Virus record (IMG/VR): IMGVR_UViG_3300005518_000002
Span: 17,860 to 81,859 of that record
Strand: one strand, 5' to 3'
Source of the DNA: a virus
Length of the DNA: 64,000 bases
How positions within the stretch are numbered: position 1 is the stretch's first letter; each line of letters opens with the position of its first letter. The translations under genes were made by a program, and so were the position numbers. Shown piece after piece: positions 17,451 through 63,369 of the stretch. Below the pieces are notes generated by a model, which saw nothing but the letters and a program-made list of their open reading frames with translations, was not told where the DNA came from and ran no database searches.

Positions 17451-18839
17451 TCAGCCAATTTTGCGGCTGACTGCTGCGAGCCCCTTACCGCCGGATTTGT
17501 TGCCGGTCATCATCAGCTTGACGATCCGCTGATGCCACGCTGGCCACACCATCGCGTCCAGCCGGTCGGGAGACCAGTCGAGCTCTTCGTGCCATGTACA
17601 CAGCTGGTCCTCAAGCTCAGGATGCACCCCGACGAGGTGCCAGCGGTTCTGCTCGGTCAGCGCGCTGACGGGGGAAGCACGGACCTTCTTCCCCCGGCTG
17701 GCTGTGACCTTGCGCACCGGGATGCTGATCCCCATGGAGTCCGCGGCCGCGCGGATCGTGCCGATCGCCATGTCGCCCCCGTAGTTGATCTCTACGCAGA
17801 TGTCGTCCGCCTCGTAGTCGACGGCAGCCTGGACAGCGCGCCGCCCCCATCCGTCAGGGGTGAGGTGACAGGTACGGTCGGCCAGCACGAAGCCGTGTGC
17901 CAGGGGAGTGCGCAGCCGGGCATCCTCCGTCTCCCGGGTGATGAGGGACTTGCCGACAACGACGATGCCCTGCTCCCCGGCTCCGCCCGACGGGTCCACT
18001 CCGACGCTGCGCCGGACGTTGGGGGTCATGAGATCGAGATTCGGTATGCGGCTGGAGTCGAGACCGGCGTGGGTCCACAGTGCGTTCTCGTCCTGGTCGA
18101 GGACTTCGGCATGCAGCTCCTGACGGCCCAGCTGCGTACCGCCGTACTCGTCCTCCAGCTCCTGGCGGAGCTCCCCGTCCAGGTGGGGGTTGTCGTACAT
18201 GGAGGCACGGGAGACGGAGACGTTGCGGAACTCCCCGCGGTCCAGCTTTTTGATCAGCGGACGTGGCTTCGGCGTGGTCGATGCAACCCAGTGGGGCCGC
18301 TGTCCGACGCGGAGACCGAAACGCATGTGAGGCCAGCACGCGTCGAGGTAGCGCCAGGCTGCAAGCTCTTCTGCCCAGACCACACAACGGTTACCACCGG
18401 AACGAAGACGTTCAACATCCTCCGGAGTATGCGCACCAAACAGCTTCGCCTCGGATCCATTGGGCCAGCGTACGGACAGACCACCGGCACCGGAGAACAT
18501 GCGTGCGTCGGGGTTGTGCGCCTTGAGGCCCGAAGGTCCGTTGACGCAGCTCGTCGCCGCGTCGCCGAGAGTGGGAGCGATGATGCCGATCCAGTGCGGG
18601 GTGTGACCGGGCAGGCACGGCGGACCGTTGACATGATCGGTGATGTACTTGGCGCAGGCGTCCGTCTTACCGGCGCCGCGCCCCGCGAGCAGCAGCCAGC
18701 CCCGCCAGTCGCCCGGGGGAGGAATCTGGTGAGGCAGGGGCTGCCACTTGACGATGGACATGGCACGCAGATGCATGGCCAGCCGGTCGCTGGCCCCGCG
18801 TGCGATGCTGCCCTTCGCGCTCATGTGATCAGTGTGCAT
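17451..18839 (-). CDS. terL: Terminase large subunit
   Basis: Walker A AGRGAGKT, Walker B VWAEE, STTPKP, GVDPS and SPDRLDAMVW nuclease motifs. Confidence 0.92.
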   Translation of the reverse strand: MHTDHMSAKGSIARGASDRLAMHLRAMSIVKWQPLPHQIPPPGDWRGWLLLAGRGAGKTDACAKYITDHVNGPPCLPGHTPHWIGIIAPTLGDAATSCVNGPSGLKAHNPDARMFSGAGGLSVRWPNGSEAKLFGAHTPEDVERLRSGGNRCVVWAEELAAWRYLDACWPHMRFGLRVGQRPHWVASTTPKPRPLIKKLDRGEFRNVSVSRASMYDNPHLDGELRQELEDEYGGTQLGRQELHAEVLDQDENALWTHAGLDSSRIPNLDLMTPNVRRSVGVDPSGGAGEQGIVVVGKSLITRETEDARLRTPLAHGFVLADRTCHLTPDGWGRRAVQAAVDYEADDICVEINYGGDMAIGTIRAAADSMGISIPVRKVTASRGKKVRASPVSALTEQNRWHLVGVHPELEDQLCTWHEELDWSPDRLDAMVWPAWHQRIVKLMMTGNKSGGKGLAAVSRKIG

Positions 18840-18872: not shown

Positions 18873-19079
18873 TCAGCTGGCTATGTGAACGCTGACCTTG
18901 CCAAGGATGTCTCCGATGACCGGCCACACCTGCGGTCCCCAGGACGTCGTCGTTCCCATGGAGATCCCGGTGAGGATGGCGATCACCGCGACAATCTTCG
19001 TCACCCGCTGGCGGCCGGAGAGGAAAGCCAGCAGAACGAGAACAGCGAAGATCCATAAACCTACGGTTATGTTTGTCAT
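18873..19079 (-). CDS. Small membrane protein
   Basis: 68 aa, two hydrophobic segments. Confidence 0.55.
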   Translation of the reverse strand: MTNITVGLWIFAVLVLLAFLSGRQRVTKIVAVIAILTGISMGTTTSWGPQVWPVIGDILGKVSVHIAS

Positions 19080-30103: not shown

Positions 30104-33100
30104 TCACTTGGCGGAGATTTCTCCCCAGTTGTGGCCCGGCTTCGAGAGATCGCACAGGATCGGCACATCCCTCCATTCCCAGGTGAAAGCGTCCTTGATC
30201 TCTGCGCCGACTTCCGCCGCCAGGTTCTCGGGTACCGAGAACACGAACTCGTCGTGGACCCAGCCCCTCAGGTACGCCCGGTACTCGGGGTGGCGGTCCA
30301 TCAGGCGGAGCAGCACCTCACAGGTGATGTCCCGCGCCCCGCCCTGGCCCATCAGCGCGGGAGCCACCGTGTACGCCCACTTCGGGTCACAGCGCATCAG
30401 GCGCCCGAATCCGTTGTCGAGCAGTTCCCCGTTCGCCCCCTTGGCCCGTACGTCGTCGCGCCATTCCATCAGCCGGGGGAACCGGGCCTCCATTCCGTTG
30501 ACGAAGGCATAAACGATTTTCGGGTCCGCACCGTCTTCGATCATCCGCCGGGCCCCGAGACCGTAGTTCCAGCCGTGACCCCGGGCCTTCGCATCCTGCC
30601 TGCTGATTCCGAGCATGTCCGCGATCAGCTGGTGCGCGTCCTTCTGTGTGCCGTCCTCCTCGAACCCGAACAGCGCCATGTAACCCGGGTCCTGGCAGTG
30701 CCCGGCAATCGCCCGCATGTCGACCTGCGCCAGGTCGCAGGCCATCAGCACGTCCCCGTCGTCCGCCTCGAAGATCTCCCGCTCCACGTGGCGGCCGCCG
30801 TGCTTCCCGTAGACGGTCATGCCCGGTTCGGTGACCGAGCCCCGGCCGCTGGCCTGGCGCATGGACACCTTCGGGTGCACGCGCCCCTCGGGCGTCAGGT
30901 ACTTCTGCGCGGTCTGGTAGACGGTGCGGGTGGTGGTGACCACGCGCATCAGCTCCAGCGCCCGCTTCAGCTCCGCAGGGCACCGCGGGTGCTCCGCCAC
31001 CCGGTCCAGCGTGTCGGCCGCCGTGCTCAGCCTGCCGTTCTCGGTCTTCGGGGGCTGGGTGACGCCGTGCTGCTTCCACAGGTCCGTGAGCCAGGCGATC
31101 CCCTCCGTGGTGGCGAGAGGGGAGCTGAACGGCTCCCTGACGGCCTTGCGTGCCTTCCCCCGCCCCCGCATCACCTCCCGGGACAGCGGGAGCCCGTAGC
31201 CCTCGCTGAGCTCTTTGAGGGCTGCCTGCTTCTTCTCCTCCCCGTCCCGCAGCCGCTGGTTCAGCAGCTCCGTGTTGACCTTGAACCCGTTGAGCGTCAT
31301 CCGCCCCATGAGGGGGAGGATCCTGTGCTCGCGCCGGGTGTAGTCGTCCGAGGGCAGGATCCCGCGCACCGCCCGGGAGGCTTCAAGATCGCCCCGCAGG
31401 TAGTCGTTGTACTCAGAGTCATCTTTCGGGATCTTGTCGAACCCGCCGTGCTTGCGCGCCAGAACCCGGATGTCGTTGGTCTTCCCGGCCACCCCGTAGC
31501 GCTGAGCCACATGATCCAGATCGTACTCGTCCACCGACGACTTGCCCCGGCTCCTCGGGGGGTGCGCCTGCCGGGCGAGAGGTTCGGTGTCGACCGCCTT
31601 GCGGGCGAACGCGTCGAAGTCCATCCGGTGCCAGTGCGCGAGTGCCGGGCCGTCGAACCCGAGGATGTTGTGCCCGTAGACCTCCGGTGCCCGGGAGATC
31701 ATTTCCACCAGTTCCGCGGGGGGCACGCCCGTCCTCGAATTGCCGTGCTGGTCGATCACTCCGGCAAGGCGCACGAAGCCCTCCCCGTAGGTGAACGCGG
31801 CGGACGCGTCAGCGGTCTCCAGGTCGAACCCGATGGGGCCCGAGAGGTCGATTTCCACGGGGGGTGCGGGGTCCGCAAAAGGATCTACGGAGAGGTCGAA
31901 ATCAAGATCGTCCCCAAGGGCGTTCCAAGATCGGGTACCGTCAGTACCGTCAGCGCCGTTAAGTCCTCGTGATGGCTCATTTTTTCTGGTTAACCGGGCT
32001 GACGGTACTGACGGTACCTGATCTTGGTCCAGCTCTGTGACGTGCATTTTTTCATTTTTCGCTTGTTCAGTGTTCAACGACTTTTCTCCCTCCAGAATTT
32101 TTTCTGCGCCCGTTTTGTACCCATTCTCGCGACCGGCCGCGGGACCCTCCGACGGACCCCGGAAAGGATCATCAGGACAGTCCGTGCAGTCGTCCCCGGG
32201 AAGATCGTCCGGGGTGAATTTCAGCCCCCTCCAGGCGTAGTAGGTCGACCCGAGAGGAACGGACATTCCGGACGGCCGGGAGAGCCCCGACTGCTTTTTG
32301 ATCTTCTTCCTGTCGACCGGATTCTGCGACACCAGGTCGTGTCCCCCGAACCGGCTCACGAAGGTTTTGTCCCCCCATTCCTTCTGTCCCTTGTCCTTGA
32401 TGTAGGAGTTGAAATCCGCGTACAGCTCCTTTGCGATCACGTGTGAGGCGTCGTCGAACTCCAGCCGGTCCTGGATGTACGACATGATCAGATCGGAGGA
32501 CCGGCGCCATTCCTGGGTGTCCTTGTCCACCCGGTCCGGAGGAGGGGGCATGATCGTACCCAGCTCGTACCAGCGCCGGGCACCGGCCGCCATCCACGCC
32601 AGAACGGCCTCCTGGATCTTCGGATCGGTCTTGCAGCGGTCACGGAGCGTAGCGTCACCGAGCCGGTCGTTCGGCCCTTTCACCTCTTCCTGCGTCTTGC
32701 GGTAGGTGTAGGGCCAGCGCACCAGCGCCAGGCGCCTCCAGGTGCCGTGGTCCGTCTCGTCGACCACCGGCTTGTGGTTGGAGTTGATGAACAGGCTGTG
32801 CGTCGCCTTGAAGGTCACCGGGTCCTGCCGGATGCGCCGGGCCGTCACGTACGCCGTACCGGCCAGCTTCTTCGCCCGGTTGGTGTCCAGGCGCCGGGCC
32901 TCCGGCGTCTCCTCCAGCACCGCGTAGCGCGCCCCCATCAGATCCATCATTTCGGTGGGGTGGTTGTCGTTCGCGTTGCCGAGCATCACCCGGTCGCTCA
33001 CCTGCACGTGGTACTTCCCGGCTGCTTTGGCGCACGCGTCGTAGATCGTGCTCTTGCCGTTGGCCCCGCCGCCCTGACAGATCAGGATCAGATCGTCCGG

Positions 33101-34402
33101 AGTCATGTGCCCGGTGATCGCCTGTCCCTCCCTCAGCTGGAACCACTCCACCACGTCACCCGGCAGGGCCAGCAGCGCCTTGTCCCAGTCCGCGTGGTGT
33201 GCGTCCTTGACGAAGTCCACTCCCGCAATCTTCGTCATCAGCTGGTCGGGATCATGCGGCGTCAGCACCCCGGTCTTCAGGTCCACCACACCGTTGGGGC
33301 AGTTGAGCAGATCCGGATCGCCGTCGAAGCTCTCCGCGTCGCACTCCAGCGTTCCCTTCGCCAGCCGGATCACCGCACCCACCCGGCTCGCGCTCAGCAC
33401 GCCCCGCCAGCCGTCCACCGCCGCACCCAGGTCCCTGCCCGTGCCGCTGTGCTGCGCGTCCACGGCCCGGTGGTAGTGCTCCAGTGCCCAGCGGCTCACC
33501 GTCTCCACGACAGTGACCTCCGTGGCCTCCTTCCACACCTTGCCGGTCCACTGCATCCACCCCATGCCCGCAGCCCAGCGGAAGCGGCCGTCCAGCTCCT
33601 CGTCGCACACCGTGTCGGCCAGCACCCTGTCCGTGAACGTGGCGTCGCGCGATTCGTTGGGCAGCTGGTCCATGCTGGCCTGGCCGAGGACTTCCAGCGT
33701 CCCTCCGGCATGGAAGAAGTCGTCCACGCCCTTCACGGCCGTGCCGTCCACCTCGGCCGGGATGATCAGGTACCGGACCGTGGCACCCTTGCTCTCCAGC
33801 CAGCGGCCGAGCCGCTGCATGGCCAGAAGAACGTTTCTCTTCTCCCGGGCGTCCGCGTCGAAACAGACCACGACCGTCCGGTCCATCAGGGGAATGTCTT
33901 CCCAGTCCCCGAGCGTTCCCATCTTGCTGCGCCAGTTGAACACCCCGGTCAGCGTGATCACTGCCTTGCCCAGGGAGGCCAGGCAGTCGGCCTTCTTCAG
34001 CCCTTCCGTGATCCACAGCGGTTCGCTCGGGTCGCGCACCCCGTCGCTCACGGGCGGGGGGACGTCCAGCCGGTTGGGCACGCCGGTCTGGCTGGCGTAC
34101 TTCTGGAGCTTGCCGCCGGGGGCCTCCTGCGGAATGGCAGGCTTGAACTGGCAGCCGATCTTCTCGCCGGTCACCCGGTACATCGGGATGAGCAGCCCCG
34201 GGAACGCCATCGGGTCCCGCCATGCCCAGCGCGGCACCCGCAGGTCGTGCAGCCGGGCCTGGTCGTCGTCCGAGCCGTACAGGGTCTCGTACCCGCGGGC
34301 GCGGCGCACCTCCTCGCTGATGCAGCTCTCCTCCAGCTCCCGCAGGTGCCCGGCCATCAGCTCCTGGGCAGCTGCCACGGGTGGTTCCTCGGTGGTCGTC
34401 AC
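30104..34402 (-). CDS. Fusion: DUF3854 TOPRIM primase + D5/SF3 helicase + 3'-5' exonuclease + family A DNA polymerase
   Basis: WITEGLKKAD, VCFDAD, KGVDD; LNCPNGVVDL, GGGANGKST; FDLET, HNILGFD; DLAQVDMR, RQDAKARGHGWNYG, WVHDE; one 1432-aa frame. Confidence 0.9.
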   Translation of the reverse strand: MTTTEEPPVAAAQELMAGHLRELEESCISEEVRRARGYETLYGSDDDQARLHDLRVPRWAWRDPMAFPGLLIPMYRVTGEKIGCQFKPAIPQEAPGGKLQKYASQTGVPNRLDVPPPVSDGVRDPSEPLWITEGLKKADCLASLGKAVITLTGVFNWRSKMGTLGDWEDIPLMDRTVVVCFDADAREKRNVLLAMQRLGRWLESKGATVRYLIIPAEVDGTAVKGVDDFFHAGGTLEVLGQASMDQLPNESRDATFTDRVLADTVCDEELDGRFRWAAGMGWMQWTGKVWKEATEVTVVETVSRWALEHYHRAVDAQHSGTGRDLGAAVDGWRGVLSASRVGAVIRLAKGTLECDAESFDGDPDLLNCPNGVVDLKTGVLTPHDPDQLMTKIAGVDFVKDAHHADWDKALLALPGDVVEWFQLREGQAITGHMTPDDLILICQGGGANGKSTIYDACAKAAGKYHVQVSDRVMLGNANDNHPTEMMDLMGARYAVLEETPEARRLDTNRAKKLAGTAYVTARRIRQDPVTFKATHSLFINSNHKPVVDETDHGTWRRLALVRWPYTYRKTQEEVKGPNDRLGDATLRDRCKTDPKIQEAVLAWMAAGARRWYELGTIMPPPPDRVDKDTQEWRRSSDLIMSYIQDRLEFDDASHVIAKELYADFNSYIKDKGQKEWGDKTFVSRFGGHDLVSQNPVDRKKIKKQSGLSRPSGMSVPLGSTYYAWRGLKFTPDDLPGDDCTDCPDDPFRGPSEGPAAGRENGYKTGAEKILEGEKSLNTEQAKNEKMHVTELDQDQVPSVPSARLTRKNEPSRGLNGADGTDGTRSWNALGDDLDFDLSVDPFADPAPPVEIDLSGPIGFDLETADASAAFTYGEGFVRLAGVIDQHGNSRTGVPPAELVEMISRAPEVYGHNILGFDGPALAHWHRMDFDAFARKAVDTEPLARQAHPPRSRGKSSVDEYDLDHVAQRYGVAGKTNDIRVLARKHGGFDKIPKDDSEYNDYLRGDLEASRAVRGILPSDDYTRREHRILPLMGRMTLNGFKVNTELLNQRLRDGEEKKQAALKELSEGYGLPLSREVMRGRGKARKAVREPFSSPLATTEGIAWLTDLWKQHGVTQPPKTENGRLSTAADTLDRVAEHPRCPAELKRALELMRVVTTTRTVYQTAQKYLTPEGRVHPKVSMRQASGRGSVTEPGMTVYGKHGGRHVEREIFEADDGDVLMACDLAQVDMRAIAGHCQDPGYMALFGFEEDGTQKDAHQLIADMLGISRQDAKARGHGWNYGLGARRMIEDGADPKIVYAFVNGMEARFPRLMEWRDDVRAKGANGELLDNGFGRLMRCDPKWAYTVAPALMGQGGARDITCEVLLRLMDRHPEYRAYLRGWVHDEFVFSVPENLAAEVGAEIKDAFTWEWRDVPILCDLSKPGHNWGEISAK
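31934..32018. repeat. 29-bp inverted repeat beside AT-rich tract; candidate origin
   Basis: GGTACCGTCAGTACCGTCAGCGCCGTTAA (31934-31962) / TTAACCGGGCTGACGGTACTGACGGTACC (31990-32018). Confidence 0.8.
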
Positions 34403-49046: not shown

Positions 49047-51020
49047 GTGGCCAGGATGAGCATCAACTTCGGTGCACGATTCGGCTGGCTGATGGCTGAG
49101 AAAACGGCTCCCTTTTCGGCGCCGGTACTGCTCAGCCTGGCTGCTATGCCGCTTGCCGTTCTCGCCCACTGGGGCTGGGGGGACGATCCGGTCTGGATCG
49201 CTGTCCTGGCTGTGGTCTCCACGATCCTGACCGCCTCCACGTACTGGACCTGGGGCCGCCGCAGCCGGGAGAGCCAGCGGGTGGCCACGGTGTTCACCGC
49301 CCTGGTACTGGGCTGGATCACCTTCGCGGCCGCGTCCAGCCCCTTCAACTCCGGCATGGTCAGTGCCTGGCTGCTCGGAACCGTCGCTCTCGGCATCCTG
49401 TGGGGTATCCGGCACGCCGGTCTCAAGCCCTCCAGCGAGAACGACAAGCAGGTCAGCGAGCCCGACCCGCTGGGCGGTCGTGTGGGCGTGCTGAAGGGAG
49501 CCCGGACAAAGAAGATCAAGGGGGACGACGAAGCGGTGGAGGCACGGGTGCAGATGCCCCGGGGCGGAGCCACCGTGGCGGATGTCCAGGCAGCCCGGGA
49601 CACCATCGCTTCGGCCGTCAGCATGGGGACGGACCAGGTCACCGTCCGGCCGGTCAAGGGACGTGCGGACCAGGTTGACCTGGCCTTCACCCAGCCCGTG
49701 GACATGGACAAAGTCCTGGCCTGGACAGGTCCGTCCCACCCCGGGAAGTCCATCGCGGATGCCCCGATCCGTCTGGGCTACCGCATGAACGGCAGCGAGA
49801 TCGCCTGGTGGCTGGTCGGGTCGGGAGACCCCGCCAACCCCCGGGTGCTGTCCCACACGCTGTGCACCGGCATGACCGGCTCCGGGAAGACGGAGACGAT
49901 CTGCACGGCGATCATCGAGATGCGCTCCCGCACGGACATCGTGCCGATCGTGGGAGACCCCGCCAAGTTCGCGCAGAGCTTCGGGGACATCGCGGACTGC
50001 CTGGAGATCGCGGCCAAGACCCCGGCCGAGGTCAAAAAGCTGATCAAGAACCTGCCGGACGCCGTGGTCTACCGTGCCGGGCTGCTGGGCACCCTGACCA
50101 GGGCAAACGGCCAGGTCGGGTACAAGGAGTGGATCCCGGAGTGCTACACCCTGCACGGGATCCCGGCAGTGTTCATCGACATCGAGGAAGCGGCCGACGT
50201 CGCCGATCTGATCGCTGATGAGCTGGACGAAGCAGTGCGCAAGCTCCGCTCCATAGGCATCCACCTCTGCATCTCGATGCAGACCGCACCGCACGACAAC
50301 ATGGCGCGCAAGACCCGCGGGCAGTTCGGCCAGTCGCTGGCCCACGGGTGCCAGGAAGCCCAGGATGCCAAGTACTCCCTGAACTCGAACACTCTCGACG
50401 CAGGGGCGGACCCCACCAAGTGGGGCAACGAATCCCCCGGCTCGCTGTATGCGGAGCTGGTCGGCACGGACAAGCTGCACTGGTCCGTGGACGGCAAGGT
50501 GCTCGCCACGACGTACGAGCAGAAGCGCACGTCGATCAGGGACACGAAGCGGTACTGGGCACACCTGGACGCCGGGACGAAGCAGATCCTCGGCCGGGGG
50601 ATCATCCTCCAGGACGAGCAGTTCCTGGCCGCGCTGCCGAGCGTTCCGGCCGACAGGGAAGTACCCGAAGAGGATGTGAGGCGGGACCTACACGCGGTCC
50701 CGACCGACGAAGGAGTGGTGGATGTGACACAGGAACTTCAGCCTCCGGTAGGTCCCCGGGTGGCCTTCGGGTCGCCCGAGCGTGACCGGATGAGCACCGA
50801 GGATGCACGTGCGCTGATCGAGGGAAGGATCGACGATCTGGAAGCCGGGGGCCGCGATTCGGTGGGCTTCGGAGACCTCGAAGATCTCGCCGCAGTGACC
50901 GGCCGCCAGCGCACCTGGATCTACCAGGAGCTGACACGGCTGGTAAAGGAGGGACGCCTGGTGGAGGGAACGAAGCCCCCGTACGCCATCAAGAGGCGTT
51001 CCGAGACAGCTGTCAGCTGA
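49047..51020 (+). CDS. traB: TraB-type FtsK/SpoIIIE conjugative DNA translocase
   Basis: N-terminal TMs, WTGPSHPGKSIADAPIRLG, Walker A GMTGSGKT, IDIEEA, RSIGIHLCISMQ, AGADPTKWGN, C-terminal wHTH (RQRTWIYQELTRL..EGRL). Confidence 0.85.
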   Translation: MARMSINFGARFGWLMAEKTAPFSAPVLLSLAAMPLAVLAHWGWGDDPVWIAVLAVVSTILTASTYWTWGRRSRESQRVATVFTALVLGWITFAAASSPFNSGMVSAWLLGTVALGILWGIRHAGLKPSSENDKQVSEPDPLGGRVGVLKGARTKKIKGDDEAVEARVQMPRGGATVADVQAARDTIASAVSMGTDQVTVRPVKGRADQVDLAFTQPVDMDKVLAWTGPSHPGKSIADAPIRLGYRMNGSEIAWWLVGSGDPANPRVLSHTLCTGMTGSGKTETICTAIIEMRSRTDIVPIVGDPAKFAQSFGDIADCLEIAAKTPAEVKKLIKNLPDAVVYRAGLLGTLTRANGQVGYKEWIPECYTLHGIPAVFIDIEEAADVADLIADELDEAVRKLRSIGIHLCISMQTAPHDNMARKTRGQFGQSLAHGCQEAQDAKYSLNSNTLDAGADPTKWGNESPGSLYAELVGTDKLHWSVDGKVLATTYEQKRTSIRDTKRYWAHLDAGTKQILGRGIILQDEQFLAALPSVPADREVPEEDVRRDLHAVPTDEGVVDVTQELQPPVGPRVAFGSPERDRMSTEDARALIEGRIDDLEAGGRDSVGFGDLEDLAAVTGRQRTWIYQELTRLVKEGRLVEGTKPPYAIKRRSETAVS

Positions 51021-58126: not shown

Positions 58127-58146
58127 TCATCGCTATCCCCCGATAA

Positions 58147-58205
58147 GGCGAAACCGGCGCGAGCCGGTCGGCCGGAGATCACCTCCCGGTCCTGACGAGC
58201 CAGGT
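58147..58205 (+). ncRNA. Type II hammerhead ribozyme
   Basis: GGC-GAAA-CCGGC(GCGA)GCCGG-UC^-GGCCGG..CCGGUC-CUGACGA-GCC; all core nucleotides present; ACCU/AGGU pseudoknot possible. Confidence 0.9.
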
Positions 58206-58231
58206 CAGTCCAACTGAATGACGGAGAGATC

Positions 58232-58804: not shown

Positions 58805-58875
58805 GCCTCCATGGGGTAATGGATGCCCGCCGGGTTCTCAGCCCGGAGATGCCGGATCGTGACCGGCTGGAGGTA
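58805..58875 (+). tRNA. Atypical tRNA-Glu(CUC)
   Basis: GCCTCCA/TGGAGGT acceptor; D GGGT-AATGGAT-GCCC; AC CCGGG-TTCTCAG-CCCGG; T GCCGG-ATCGTGA-CCGGC. Confidence 0.75.
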
Positions 58876-58916
58876 CGCAGGAACGACCAACTGAACAGGA
58901 CCACAGGGAGATCGCT

Positions 58917-59206: not shown

Positions 59207-59344
59207 CCCTCTGTCCGGATGGAACGGGCCGCGACCGCCTCGGGCGGGGAAGCCGGTCCGGACGGAGGCCATGCCGGGGATATCCAGCGGGTGCTCGCGT
59301 GATCAGCACGCCCCCGGGGGTTCGAGTCCCCCGCCCGGTACGCA
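59207..59344 (+). ncRNA. 12-bp hairpin ending CCA followed by second D-arm-less tRNA-like element
   Basis: CCTCTGTCCGGA/TCCGGACGGAGG-CCA; then GCCGGG.../GGGGG-TTCGAGT-CCCCC-GCCCGGT. Confidence 0.55.
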
Positions 59345-62143: not shown

Positions 62144-62214
62144 GCCTCCATGGGGTAACGGATGCCCGCCAGGCTTTCAATCTGGAGATGCCGGATCATG
62201 ACCGGCTGGAGGTA
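62144..62214 (+). tRNA. Atypical tRNA-Glu(UUC)
   Basis: Same body as 58805-58875; AC arm CCAGG-CTTTCAA-TCTGG; T-loop ATCATGA. Confidence 0.75.
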
Positions 62215-62248
62215 CGCACCGCAACTGAACAACGACCAAGGAGCTCAC

Positions 62249-63270: not shown

Positions 63271-63342
63271 GCCCCTGTAGCTCAGCCGGAAGAGCGGCCG
63301 CTTTAAAACCGGCACGCACAGGTTCGAATCCTGTCGGGGGCA
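63271..63342 (+). tRNA. tRNA with UAA anticodon (Leu/bldA-type), short variable loop
   Basis: GCCCCTG/CGGGGGC; GCTC/GAGC; AC GCCGC-TTTAAAA-CCGGC (C.C mismatch at loop base); ACAGG-TTCGAAT-CCTGT; A73. Confidence 0.8.
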
Positions 63343-63369
63343 CTCGATCACGACCAGGGAGGAAAGGTC

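Follow-up and report, generated by a model that had tools for sequence, protein, structure and literature searches.

Background

What would a phage gain from a transfer RNA (tRNA) that reads the codon UUA, and where would it obtain one? Streptomyces has a single reader of UUA, its rarest codon: the leucine tRNA (tRNA-Leu) bldA, whose supply is limited by development, and this arrangement gates sporulation and antibiotic production. Here, we analyze a 64,000-nucleotide stretch of viral DNA (positions 17,860 to 81,859 of IMG/VR record IMGVR_UViG_3300005518_000002; hereafter, “the window”). It forms the right end of an 81,859-bp viral genome (66% G + C; direct terminal repeats) and carries at 63271-63342 (+) a short tRNA gene with the anticodon UAA (“the UAA tRNA”). 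Alignments with tRNAs of related phages and of S. venezuelae identify it as a paralogue of the phage family’s own phenylalanine tRNA, tRNA-Phe(GAA), in which G34 has become U. We put at about one half the probability that it is a functional phage decoder of UUA from that lineage, independent of bldA and perhaps charged with phenylalanine (Phe).

Phage tRNAs, anticodon-shifted tRNAs, and the type I tRNA-Leu and dual-identity tRNAs of Streptomyces are already known. In the literature library that we searched, we found no paper on a phage-borne class-I UAA tRNA or on one with a Phe body. A phage with its own UUA reader would be free of the bldA gate and could open that gate in the infected cell. 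In the bacteria that make most antibiotics, this would, if true, be interference between phage and host of a new kind. Charging of the tRNA with Phe, if it occurs, would amount to a natural, mobile reassignment of a sense codon from leucine (Leu) to Phe, beside relatives that seemingly do likewise with alanine, and tRNA identity switching and ambiguous decoding would become testable in a tractable system. Small orthogonal UUA decoders would also be candidate tools for activating silent gene clusters that contain TTA.

Results and discussion

The UAA tRNA is a short-armed tRNA in the canonical register

ARAGORN calls four tRNAs in the window, among them a ‘Leu(taa)’ at 63271-63343, and Rfam model RF00005 aligns with 63271-63342 across all of its 71 positions with 62.6 bits (E = 3.3e-12), above the gathering score of 29 bits and the highest of the six tRNA matches in the phage genome. 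Both programs and our reading of the sequence describe a class-I tRNA of 72 nt without an encoded CCA, all of whose parts lie on the + strand. Its acceptor stem (63271-63277 with 63335-63341) consists of seven pairs, one of them U.G, and has C3-G70 in place of the alanine mark G3.U70. The D arm (positions 8-26; 63278-63296) has a 4-bp stem, GCTC/GAGC, and an 8-nt loop starting A14-G15, with G15/C48 present. Four G-C pairs (GCCG/CGGC) form the anticodon stem and are followed by a mismatch of C31 (63301) opposite C39 (63309), seen both in the reading and with Rfam, which flanks the 7-nt loop UUUAAAA. Within this loop, U33 precedes the anticodon T-A-A (positions 34-36; 63304-63306) and A37 and A38 follow it, giving the U33 and the purine at 37 expected of a tRNA. 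The variable loop, ACGC (63314-63317), counts only 4 nt, the T arm (63318-63334) carries the loop TTCGAAT, which fits the T-loop pattern GTTCGAATC, and the discriminator is A73 at 63342. The cloverleaf, the anticodon at 63304-63306, the 4-nt variable loop, the C.C mismatch, and A73, all read from the DNA in a first-pass annotation of this locus, are thus borne out.

The same annotation had called the tRNA ‘bldA-type’, which holds for the UAA anticodon and A73 but not for the body. The UAA tRNA shares with bldA the anticodon, the codon, A73, the loop core U33-UAA-A37, and the inferred host lineage. However, bldA belongs to class II, measures 85-87 nt (85 nt in the S. venezuelae copy, L214), and combines a long variable arm with a Leu-type D arm, whereas the UAA tRNA is a phage-borne molecule of 72 nt on a Phe-type body, and its 4-nt variable loop falls short of the > 10 nt that mark a class II tRNA-Leu.

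The mismatch at the top of the anticodon stem bears on a different proposal of the first-pass annotation, namely that the tRNA is an ochre suppressor reading UAA stops in a shifted register. Opening of C31.C39 could widen the loop to the 9-nt sequence CUUUAAAAC, which contains UUA. Yet the canonical 7-nt loop with U33 and A37 is in place, ARAGORN and Rfam both set positions 34-36 at UAA, as expected for a tRNA that reads UUA, and the centre of the 9-nt loop is UAA as well. Of the 105 predicted genes, 12 terminate in TAA, a larger share than in any other family member, and frames interrupted by TAA number 4 here, compared to 2-3 in three relatives without a UAA tRNA and 5 in relative G018, which has one. 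This read-through screen is noisy in high-GC DNA, and it showed no excess. With nothing found in its favour, we consider ochre suppression scarcely credible.

A phenylalanine body with a changed anticodon

Relatives of the phage were gathered by a replicase search, which returned IMG/VR phages at 40-67% identity (62 loci); we extracted their tRNAs and aligned 68 class-I tRNAs from this family and from S. venezuelae. Segment by segment, the UAA tRNA is matched best by tRNA-Phe genes. The acceptor stem with A73 agrees at 15 of 15 positions with the tRNA-Phe of relative G006, positions 8-26 agree at 19 of 19 with the phage’s own tRNA-Phe(GAA) (genome positions 283-355, L001), and the anticodon stem agrees at 9 of 10 with the tRNA-Phe of G013 (L255:70-141), which also has a 4-nt variable loop, GCGC. 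The T arm finds its best match among Phe tRNAs in the tRNA-Phe(GAA) of G007, at 17 of 17 positions, and is equally identical to that of a CUA tRNA in relative G423. Outside the anticodon loop, the eight Phe tRNAs pooled leave 2 mismatches, compared to 5 for all 59 non-Phe tRNAs pooled. For eight non-Phe tRNAs drawn at random, the mean is 11.9 mismatches (minimum 6), and none of 20,000 such draws reaches 2.

As a stand-in for the isotype models that the first-pass annotation had named as a check, we built two covariance models, one from the eight Phe tRNAs and one from type I tRNA-Leu(CAA) (five Streptomyces copies and one phage copy). Under the Phe model, the UAA tRNA scores 75.7 bits and is the top non-member (members, 77.9-95.1), with the next non-Phe tRNA only 6 bits lower. 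Its score under the type I Leu(CAA) model, 48.1 bits, falls in the midst of a background of unrelated tRNAs (34.6-56.9) and far from the members (79.9-103.1).

With the family’s tRNA-Phe(GAA), the UAA tRNA shares A73, A35, A36, and a mismatch at 31.39, which as A.C is normal in the Phe tRNAs; with that of G013, it shares the 4-nt variable loop. It differs from them at position 34 (U instead of G), at 32 (U instead of G), and at 31 (C instead of A or G). Since the anticodon is UAA and not GAA, the gene is best described as a derivative of the tRNA-Phe lineage rather than as a Phe decoder.

For comparison with host tRNAs, we took the full set of 69 from S. venezuelae ATCC 10712 and ran BLAST against five Streptomyces genomes, which were located by a 16S primer scan. 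A recent capture of a host tRNA was considered and dropped, as the nearest host tRNAs in these comparisons are those for Asn and Arg, with neither Leu(CAA) nor Phe coming first; this points to the phage lineage as the source. Among isolated phages, megablast returned no close relative of the UAA tRNA, and a more sensitive search returned other isotypes only, with tRNA-Phe genes scoring best.

A tRNA of this origin might have no role at all, being a neutral or decaying recent duplicate of tRNA-Phe with a chance mutation at position 34. The change from GAA to UAA takes a single base, the second Phe gene makes the copy redundant, the anticodon stem carries a mismatch, the bare transcript favours a different fold, and TTA use does not follow the presence of a UAA tRNA (see below). 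Strain variants from three other runs have the tRNA unchanged; because their flanks differ by only ~ 0.65%, they are too alike to reveal purifying selection, and the lack of change carries no weight. However, the other stems are all intact, and the gene has the top tRNA score in the genome. The 31.39 mismatch is one that the family’s own Phe tRNAs tolerate as A.C. Moreover, the UAA tRNA differs from its nearest Phe relatives by many compensated stem changes that keep it foldable, and hence it is not a fresh copy. Class-I UAA tRNAs with the same loop, and mostly with the same C31 mismatch, occur on four other high-GC viral contigs (next section). Taken with these points, a functionless duplicate seems quite unlikely to us. 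In a comparison of gene order, the small open reading frames (ORFs) flanking the UAA tRNA had no conserved neighbours beside the tRNAs of eight relatives.

Class-I UAA tRNAs recur on different bodies

We searched 2.9 million viral contigs with a pattern describing a class-I tRNA with a UAA anticodon, a GC-rich anticodon stem, and GAGC at positions 22-25. It returned five distinct genes, namely the present one and four on other high-GC viral contigs, with differing bodies: L258:821-892 (-), which belongs to family member G018, L382:3858-3929, L383:5791-5864 (-), and L384:1143-1216. All five have the loop YUUAAAA and A73. C31 stands unpaired opposite a pyrimidine at 39 in four of them (three of four when the present tRNA is excluded), and 12 of 20 consensus pairs stay paired despite changes on both sides. 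When 401 Streptomyces genomes were searched with a looser pattern, no class-I UAA tRNA turned up, and a BLAST search of isolated Streptomyces phages with bldA as the query returned no tRNA of its kind.

The bodies are not all of one kind. G3.U70 together with G1-C72, G2-C71, and A73 is the alanine identity set, and the UAA tRNAs of G018 and L383 have all of these; for that of G018, we had entertained a valine-derived body and dropped it on account of the G3.U70 pair. In L384, the acceptor stem and T arm are nearest to Streptomyces type I Leu(CAA). That the same anticodon and loop sit on different class-I bodies suggests that reading of UUA was selected, with the amino acid being secondary. On a broader and more tentative view, which we think doubtful on balance, Streptomyces phages would repeatedly have made ‘UUA suppressors’ by moving the UAA anticodon onto whichever class-I body was available (Phe here, an alanine-marked body in G018 and L383, a Leu type I-like one in L384). 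UUA would then be read as different amino acids depending on the phage, and the bldA-gated TTA regulon of the host, with its genes for development and antibiotics, would be prematurely opened or corrupted.

Other tRNAs of the family have unusual anticodons or composite bodies. Relative G428 carries a class-I CAA tRNA (L370:35-108, -) with a D arm like that of type I tRNA-Leu (3-bp stem, C13.A22, A14-A15-C16) and an anticodon stem that is exactly that of the family’s Phe tRNAs. The closest complete relative, G423 (65% replicase identity), has a 71-nt CUA tRNA of the amber-suppressor type (L367:5327-5397, -; Rfam, 40.6 bits), whose T arm is the one identical to that of the UAA tRNA and whose anticodon stem is Phe-like. 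G451 has a tRNA with a UCA anticodon (L381:30-102), and G440 has an Ile(UAU) tRNA.

Phenylalanine or leucine

The amino acid that the UAA tRNA would deliver depends on which synthetase accepts it. The body, A35, A36, and A73 would favour the phenylalanyl-tRNA synthetase (PheRS) and thereby place Phe at Leu codons; the alternative is the leucyl-tRNA synthetase (LeuRS) of Streptomyces. An engineered amber suppressor, E. coli tRNA-Phe(CUA), was reportedly still charged with Phe in vivo in the work of Normanly et al. in 1986. It too joins a Phe body to a foreign anticodon, but it is a laboratory construct in another organism and reads a stop rather than a sense codon. The natural CUA tRNA of G423, with its Phe-like T arm and anticodon stem, can be likened to this construct.

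The first-pass annotation had raised charging with another amino acid, which is a live possibility since the body is not that of a leucine tRNA. It had also noted that bacterial tRNA-Leu normally has a long variable arm, but a short arm does not rule out leucine in Streptomyces: Fan et al. 2019 (PMC6614811) showed that the single LeuRS of S. coelicolor (ScoLeuRS) charges a natural type I tRNA-Leu(CAA) whose variable loop counts 5 nt. The UAA tRNA could therefore be a spare leucine tRNA, leucylated by the host enzyme, in which case UUA would still mean Leu and only the timing imposed by bldA would be bypassed. The same paper cites Pettersson and Kirsebom 2011 for a CAA-to-UAA version of type I tRNA-Leu that replaced bldA in S. 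coelicolor, and it states that A73 is no identity element for ScoLeuRS, while the length of the variable loop matters. The UAA tRNA shares with type I Leu(CAA) the short variable loop, an NAA anticodon, A73, and the inferred host lineage, and its acceptor stem agrees with the S. venezuelae copy at 13 of 15 positions. The CAA tRNA of G428, part Leu-like and part Phe-like, suggests traffic between bodies in the family, and two TTA sites in G018 align with Leu in homologues.

Against this stand the mid-background score under the type I Leu(CAA) model and the form of the molecule. A 3-bp D stem, C13.A22, a D loop starting A14-A15-C16, and a 5-nt variable loop characterize the type I Leu(CAA) of S. 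venezuelae. The UAA tRNA has none of these; it lacks the Leu-type D arm and has G15/C48. By sequence comparison, it is not a homologue of type I Leu(CAA), and the UAA tRNA of L384 is the one that resembles it. The variable loop is also short by the standard of PMC6614811, in which 5 nt is the shortest loop reported for good charging and removal of one nucleotide from the S. coelicolor tRNA-Leu(CAA) left only slight activity. As that paper also reports, ScoLeuRS refuses human mitochondrial tRNA-Leu(UUR), and thus not every class-I UAA tRNA is charged. We regard a spare leucine tRNA as unlikely. The Phe- and Leu-charged readings taken together make a working UUA decoder likely, and within them we hold Phe to be somewhat more likely as the charged amino acid.

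A published parallel for such a mixture is tRNA-ProX, a dual-identity, mistranslating tRNA of Streptomyces and Kitasatospora (Schuntermann et al. 2023, PMC10404621). It, too, belongs to this bacterial lineage and pairs the body of one isotype with an anticodon proper to a different one, and a systematic wrong amino acid at one codon family is the predicted outcome in both cases. However, tRNA-ProX is chromosomal, usually lies beside a dedicated prolyl-tRNA synthetase isoform, and was shown experimentally to mistranslate, whereas the UAA tRNA is phage-borne, has no synthetase among 10 neighbouring ORFs, and is only a candidate for mistranslation.

The host is probably Streptomyces or close kin

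The phage is known only from soil and rhizosphere metagenome contigs, with no RNA run listed, and the first-pass annotation had simply assumed a Streptomyces host. The assumption gains ground from family member G012 (IMGVR_UViG_2917791510_000001), whose replicase coordinates agree with those of NZ_CP041606.1, a 98,815-bp plasmid from Streptomyces sp. S1D4-14; persistence as an extrachromosomal replicon thus occurs in at least part of the family. Because this member is a plasmid of a Streptomyces isolate, we infer Streptomyces or close kin as the host of the family, an assignment that holds at family level and is suggestive rather than proof for the present phage. The replicase matches 455 plasmid records, of which Streptomyces accounts for 353 and Kitasatospora for 10. 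The CAA tRNA of G428 is similar to a kind of tRNA whose reports to date come from Streptomyces, and the G + C content and TTA avoidance of the phage fit a Streptomyces-type host. A replicase search of 401 Actinomycetes genomes gave partial primase-helicase matches only.

The phage itself hardly uses TTA

Counted over a set of 105 ORFs (23,299 codons) that is rough but consistently drawn up, TTA occurs five times and ranks 61st of the 61 sense codons. It is the rarest codon in eight relatives as well, which agrees with the first-pass view that the host lineage avoids it. The codons of the phage’s other tRNAs are far commoner (GAG, rank 4; TTC, 17; AAC, 21; GAA, 29). The idea that the tRNA serves many phage genes with TTA finds no support in these counts: there are at most five in-frame TTA codons, with no excess over genomes lacking a UAA tRNA, and codon compensation of the usual kind does not account for the tRNA.

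One of the five codons, at 31991-31993 (-), is codon 804 and the sole TTA of the essential replicase gene, which encodes a 1432-aa primase-helicase-polymerase (30104-34402, -) in a single ORF with DUF3854/primase, D5-type helicase, and family A DNA polymerase domains in Pfam. Another, at 19056-19058 (-), is codon 8 of a putative gene for a 68-aa hydrophobic protein (18873-19079, -). The remaining three either belong to ORFs that are doubtful or precede the probable start codon. One further TTA site aligns with V, and the sites are too few to infer an amino acid. In G018, the replicase functions are split over two overlapping ORFs, the GTG start of one overlapping the TGA stop of the other.

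A model for UUA decoding and its weight

The preferred reading, a phage UUA decoder derived from tRNA-Phe(GAA), can be set out as follows. G34 would have changed to U in a redundant copy of tRNA-Phe(GAA), with an intact Phe(GAA) gene kept nearby. The UAA tRNA lies 46 nt past one small ORF and 27 nt ahead of the next, in a co-directional run of small genes. Because it sits with other tRNAs between such closely spaced ORFs, it would be cut from an operon transcript, the host adding the CCA end. The mature tRNA would pair with UUA and, by U34 wobble, probably with UUG too. Isopentenylation of A37 matters for UUA reading by bldA (PMC10732093), and A36-A37-A38 in the UAA tRNA would offer the usual context for that modification. 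In a Streptomyces-type host, whose UUA reader is scarce in young mycelium, TTA would act nearly like a stop; the UAA tRNA would be a suppressor of this block, keeping ribosomes moving through the few phage TTA codons, including the one in the replicase. Host TTA codons would be read as well, at any growth stage. The replacement of bldA in S. coelicolor by a class-I tRNA with a UAA anticodon, reported by Pettersson and Kirsebom 2011 as cited in PMC6614811, is a precedent for such decoding.

Several points weigh against this reading. G34 is a major PheRS determinant, and with its loss, charging with Phe may be poor, though it need not be abolished. The 6-bit lead under the Phe model is small and partly due to A35 and A36, and the origin of the UAA tRNA may be mosaic, since positions 8-38, in its 5′ half, are similar to the UAA tRNA of contig L384 as well. 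TTA counts are 5 and 4 in the two family genomes with a UAA tRNA, compared to 2-11 in seven without; as the count does not rise with the tRNA, the phage’s own need would extend to one or a few codons at most. The replicase site lies in a linker of variable sequence and aligns with V, I, or Y in relatives, which gives no indication of the amino acid and hardly any of constraint. By plain thermodynamics, the minimum-energy fold of the bare transcript is an alternative hairpin and not the cloverleaf. Such minima are common for tRNAs, and this one is outweighed by the covariance-model score; together with the C31.C39 mismatch, it could nevertheless mean a weakened tRNA. Finally, expression, processing, charging, decoding, and benefit are predictions from the DNA sequence and its comparisons.

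Gene neighbourhood and further RNA elements

The UAA tRNA belongs to a co-directional cluster with tRNA-Glu(UUC) at 62144-62215 (+) and tRNA-Glu(CUC) at 58805-58876 (+), both called by ARAGORN and Rfam; a 90-nt tRNA-like element lies in the same run of genes. The cluster runs on across the genome ends (identical metagenome contig L002) with Phe(GAA), Asn(GUU), and a 92-nt tRNA-like element; the Phe(GAA) gene lies ~ 0.9 kb downstream of the UAA tRNA, beyond the window. A scan near the UAA tRNA found no promoter or terminator consensus, and neither a synthetase domain nor one of another tRNA enzyme was seen in the 10 neighbouring ORFs examined.

According to one published proposal, changes in the anticodon loop let phage tRNAs escape host tRNA nucleases (PMC10264068), and the UAA tRNA could on that ground be an anti-defence tRNA, a decoy for a host anticodon-loop nuclease or resistant to one, with decoding secondary. 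Odd anticodon arms are indeed found in the family, with 31.39 mismatches and, in the Phe tRNAs, G32. Nevertheless, little would be gained by replacing the tRNA of a codon that is nearly unused, and the neighbouring ORFs give no hint of defence. It counts further against this explanation, which we judge very unlikely, that we know of no nuclease aimed at a UUA reader.

Two long tRNA-like elements, 90-92 nt in length, lie at 59252-59341 (+) of the window and at L001:4331-4422 (+). In both, the anticodon arm holds a long insertion, and the acceptor, D, and T arms are intact; ARAGORN labels them ‘Ala(agc)’ and undetermined, and the second scores 56.1 bits with Rfam. Similar tRNA-like calls of 82-99 nt occur in many relatives (G007, G012, G014, G423), as do Rfam matches of 88-98 nt in G019-G022, G426, G456, and G461. 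On the S. venezuelae chromosome, a 77-nt tRNA at L199:27-103 (-), called Ala(agc) by ARAGORN and irregular at its acceptor end, may be of the dual-identity tRNA-ProA kind.

A 657-aa ORF at 49047-51020 (+) of the window, supposed to encode a TraB-like conjugation protein, matched no Pfam family, and this query found no relative in the genome collection. Between the Asn tRNA and the long tRNA-like element, a 122-aa ORF (L001:1878-2246, +) has a phage ProQ C-terminal-like domain (PF24203, 51.4 bits) and may encode an RNA-binding protein. Upstream of the tRNA cluster, between small ORFs, the window also contains a match to the type II hammerhead ribozyme at 58146-58209 (+) (RF02276, 39.3 bits; gathering score, 37).

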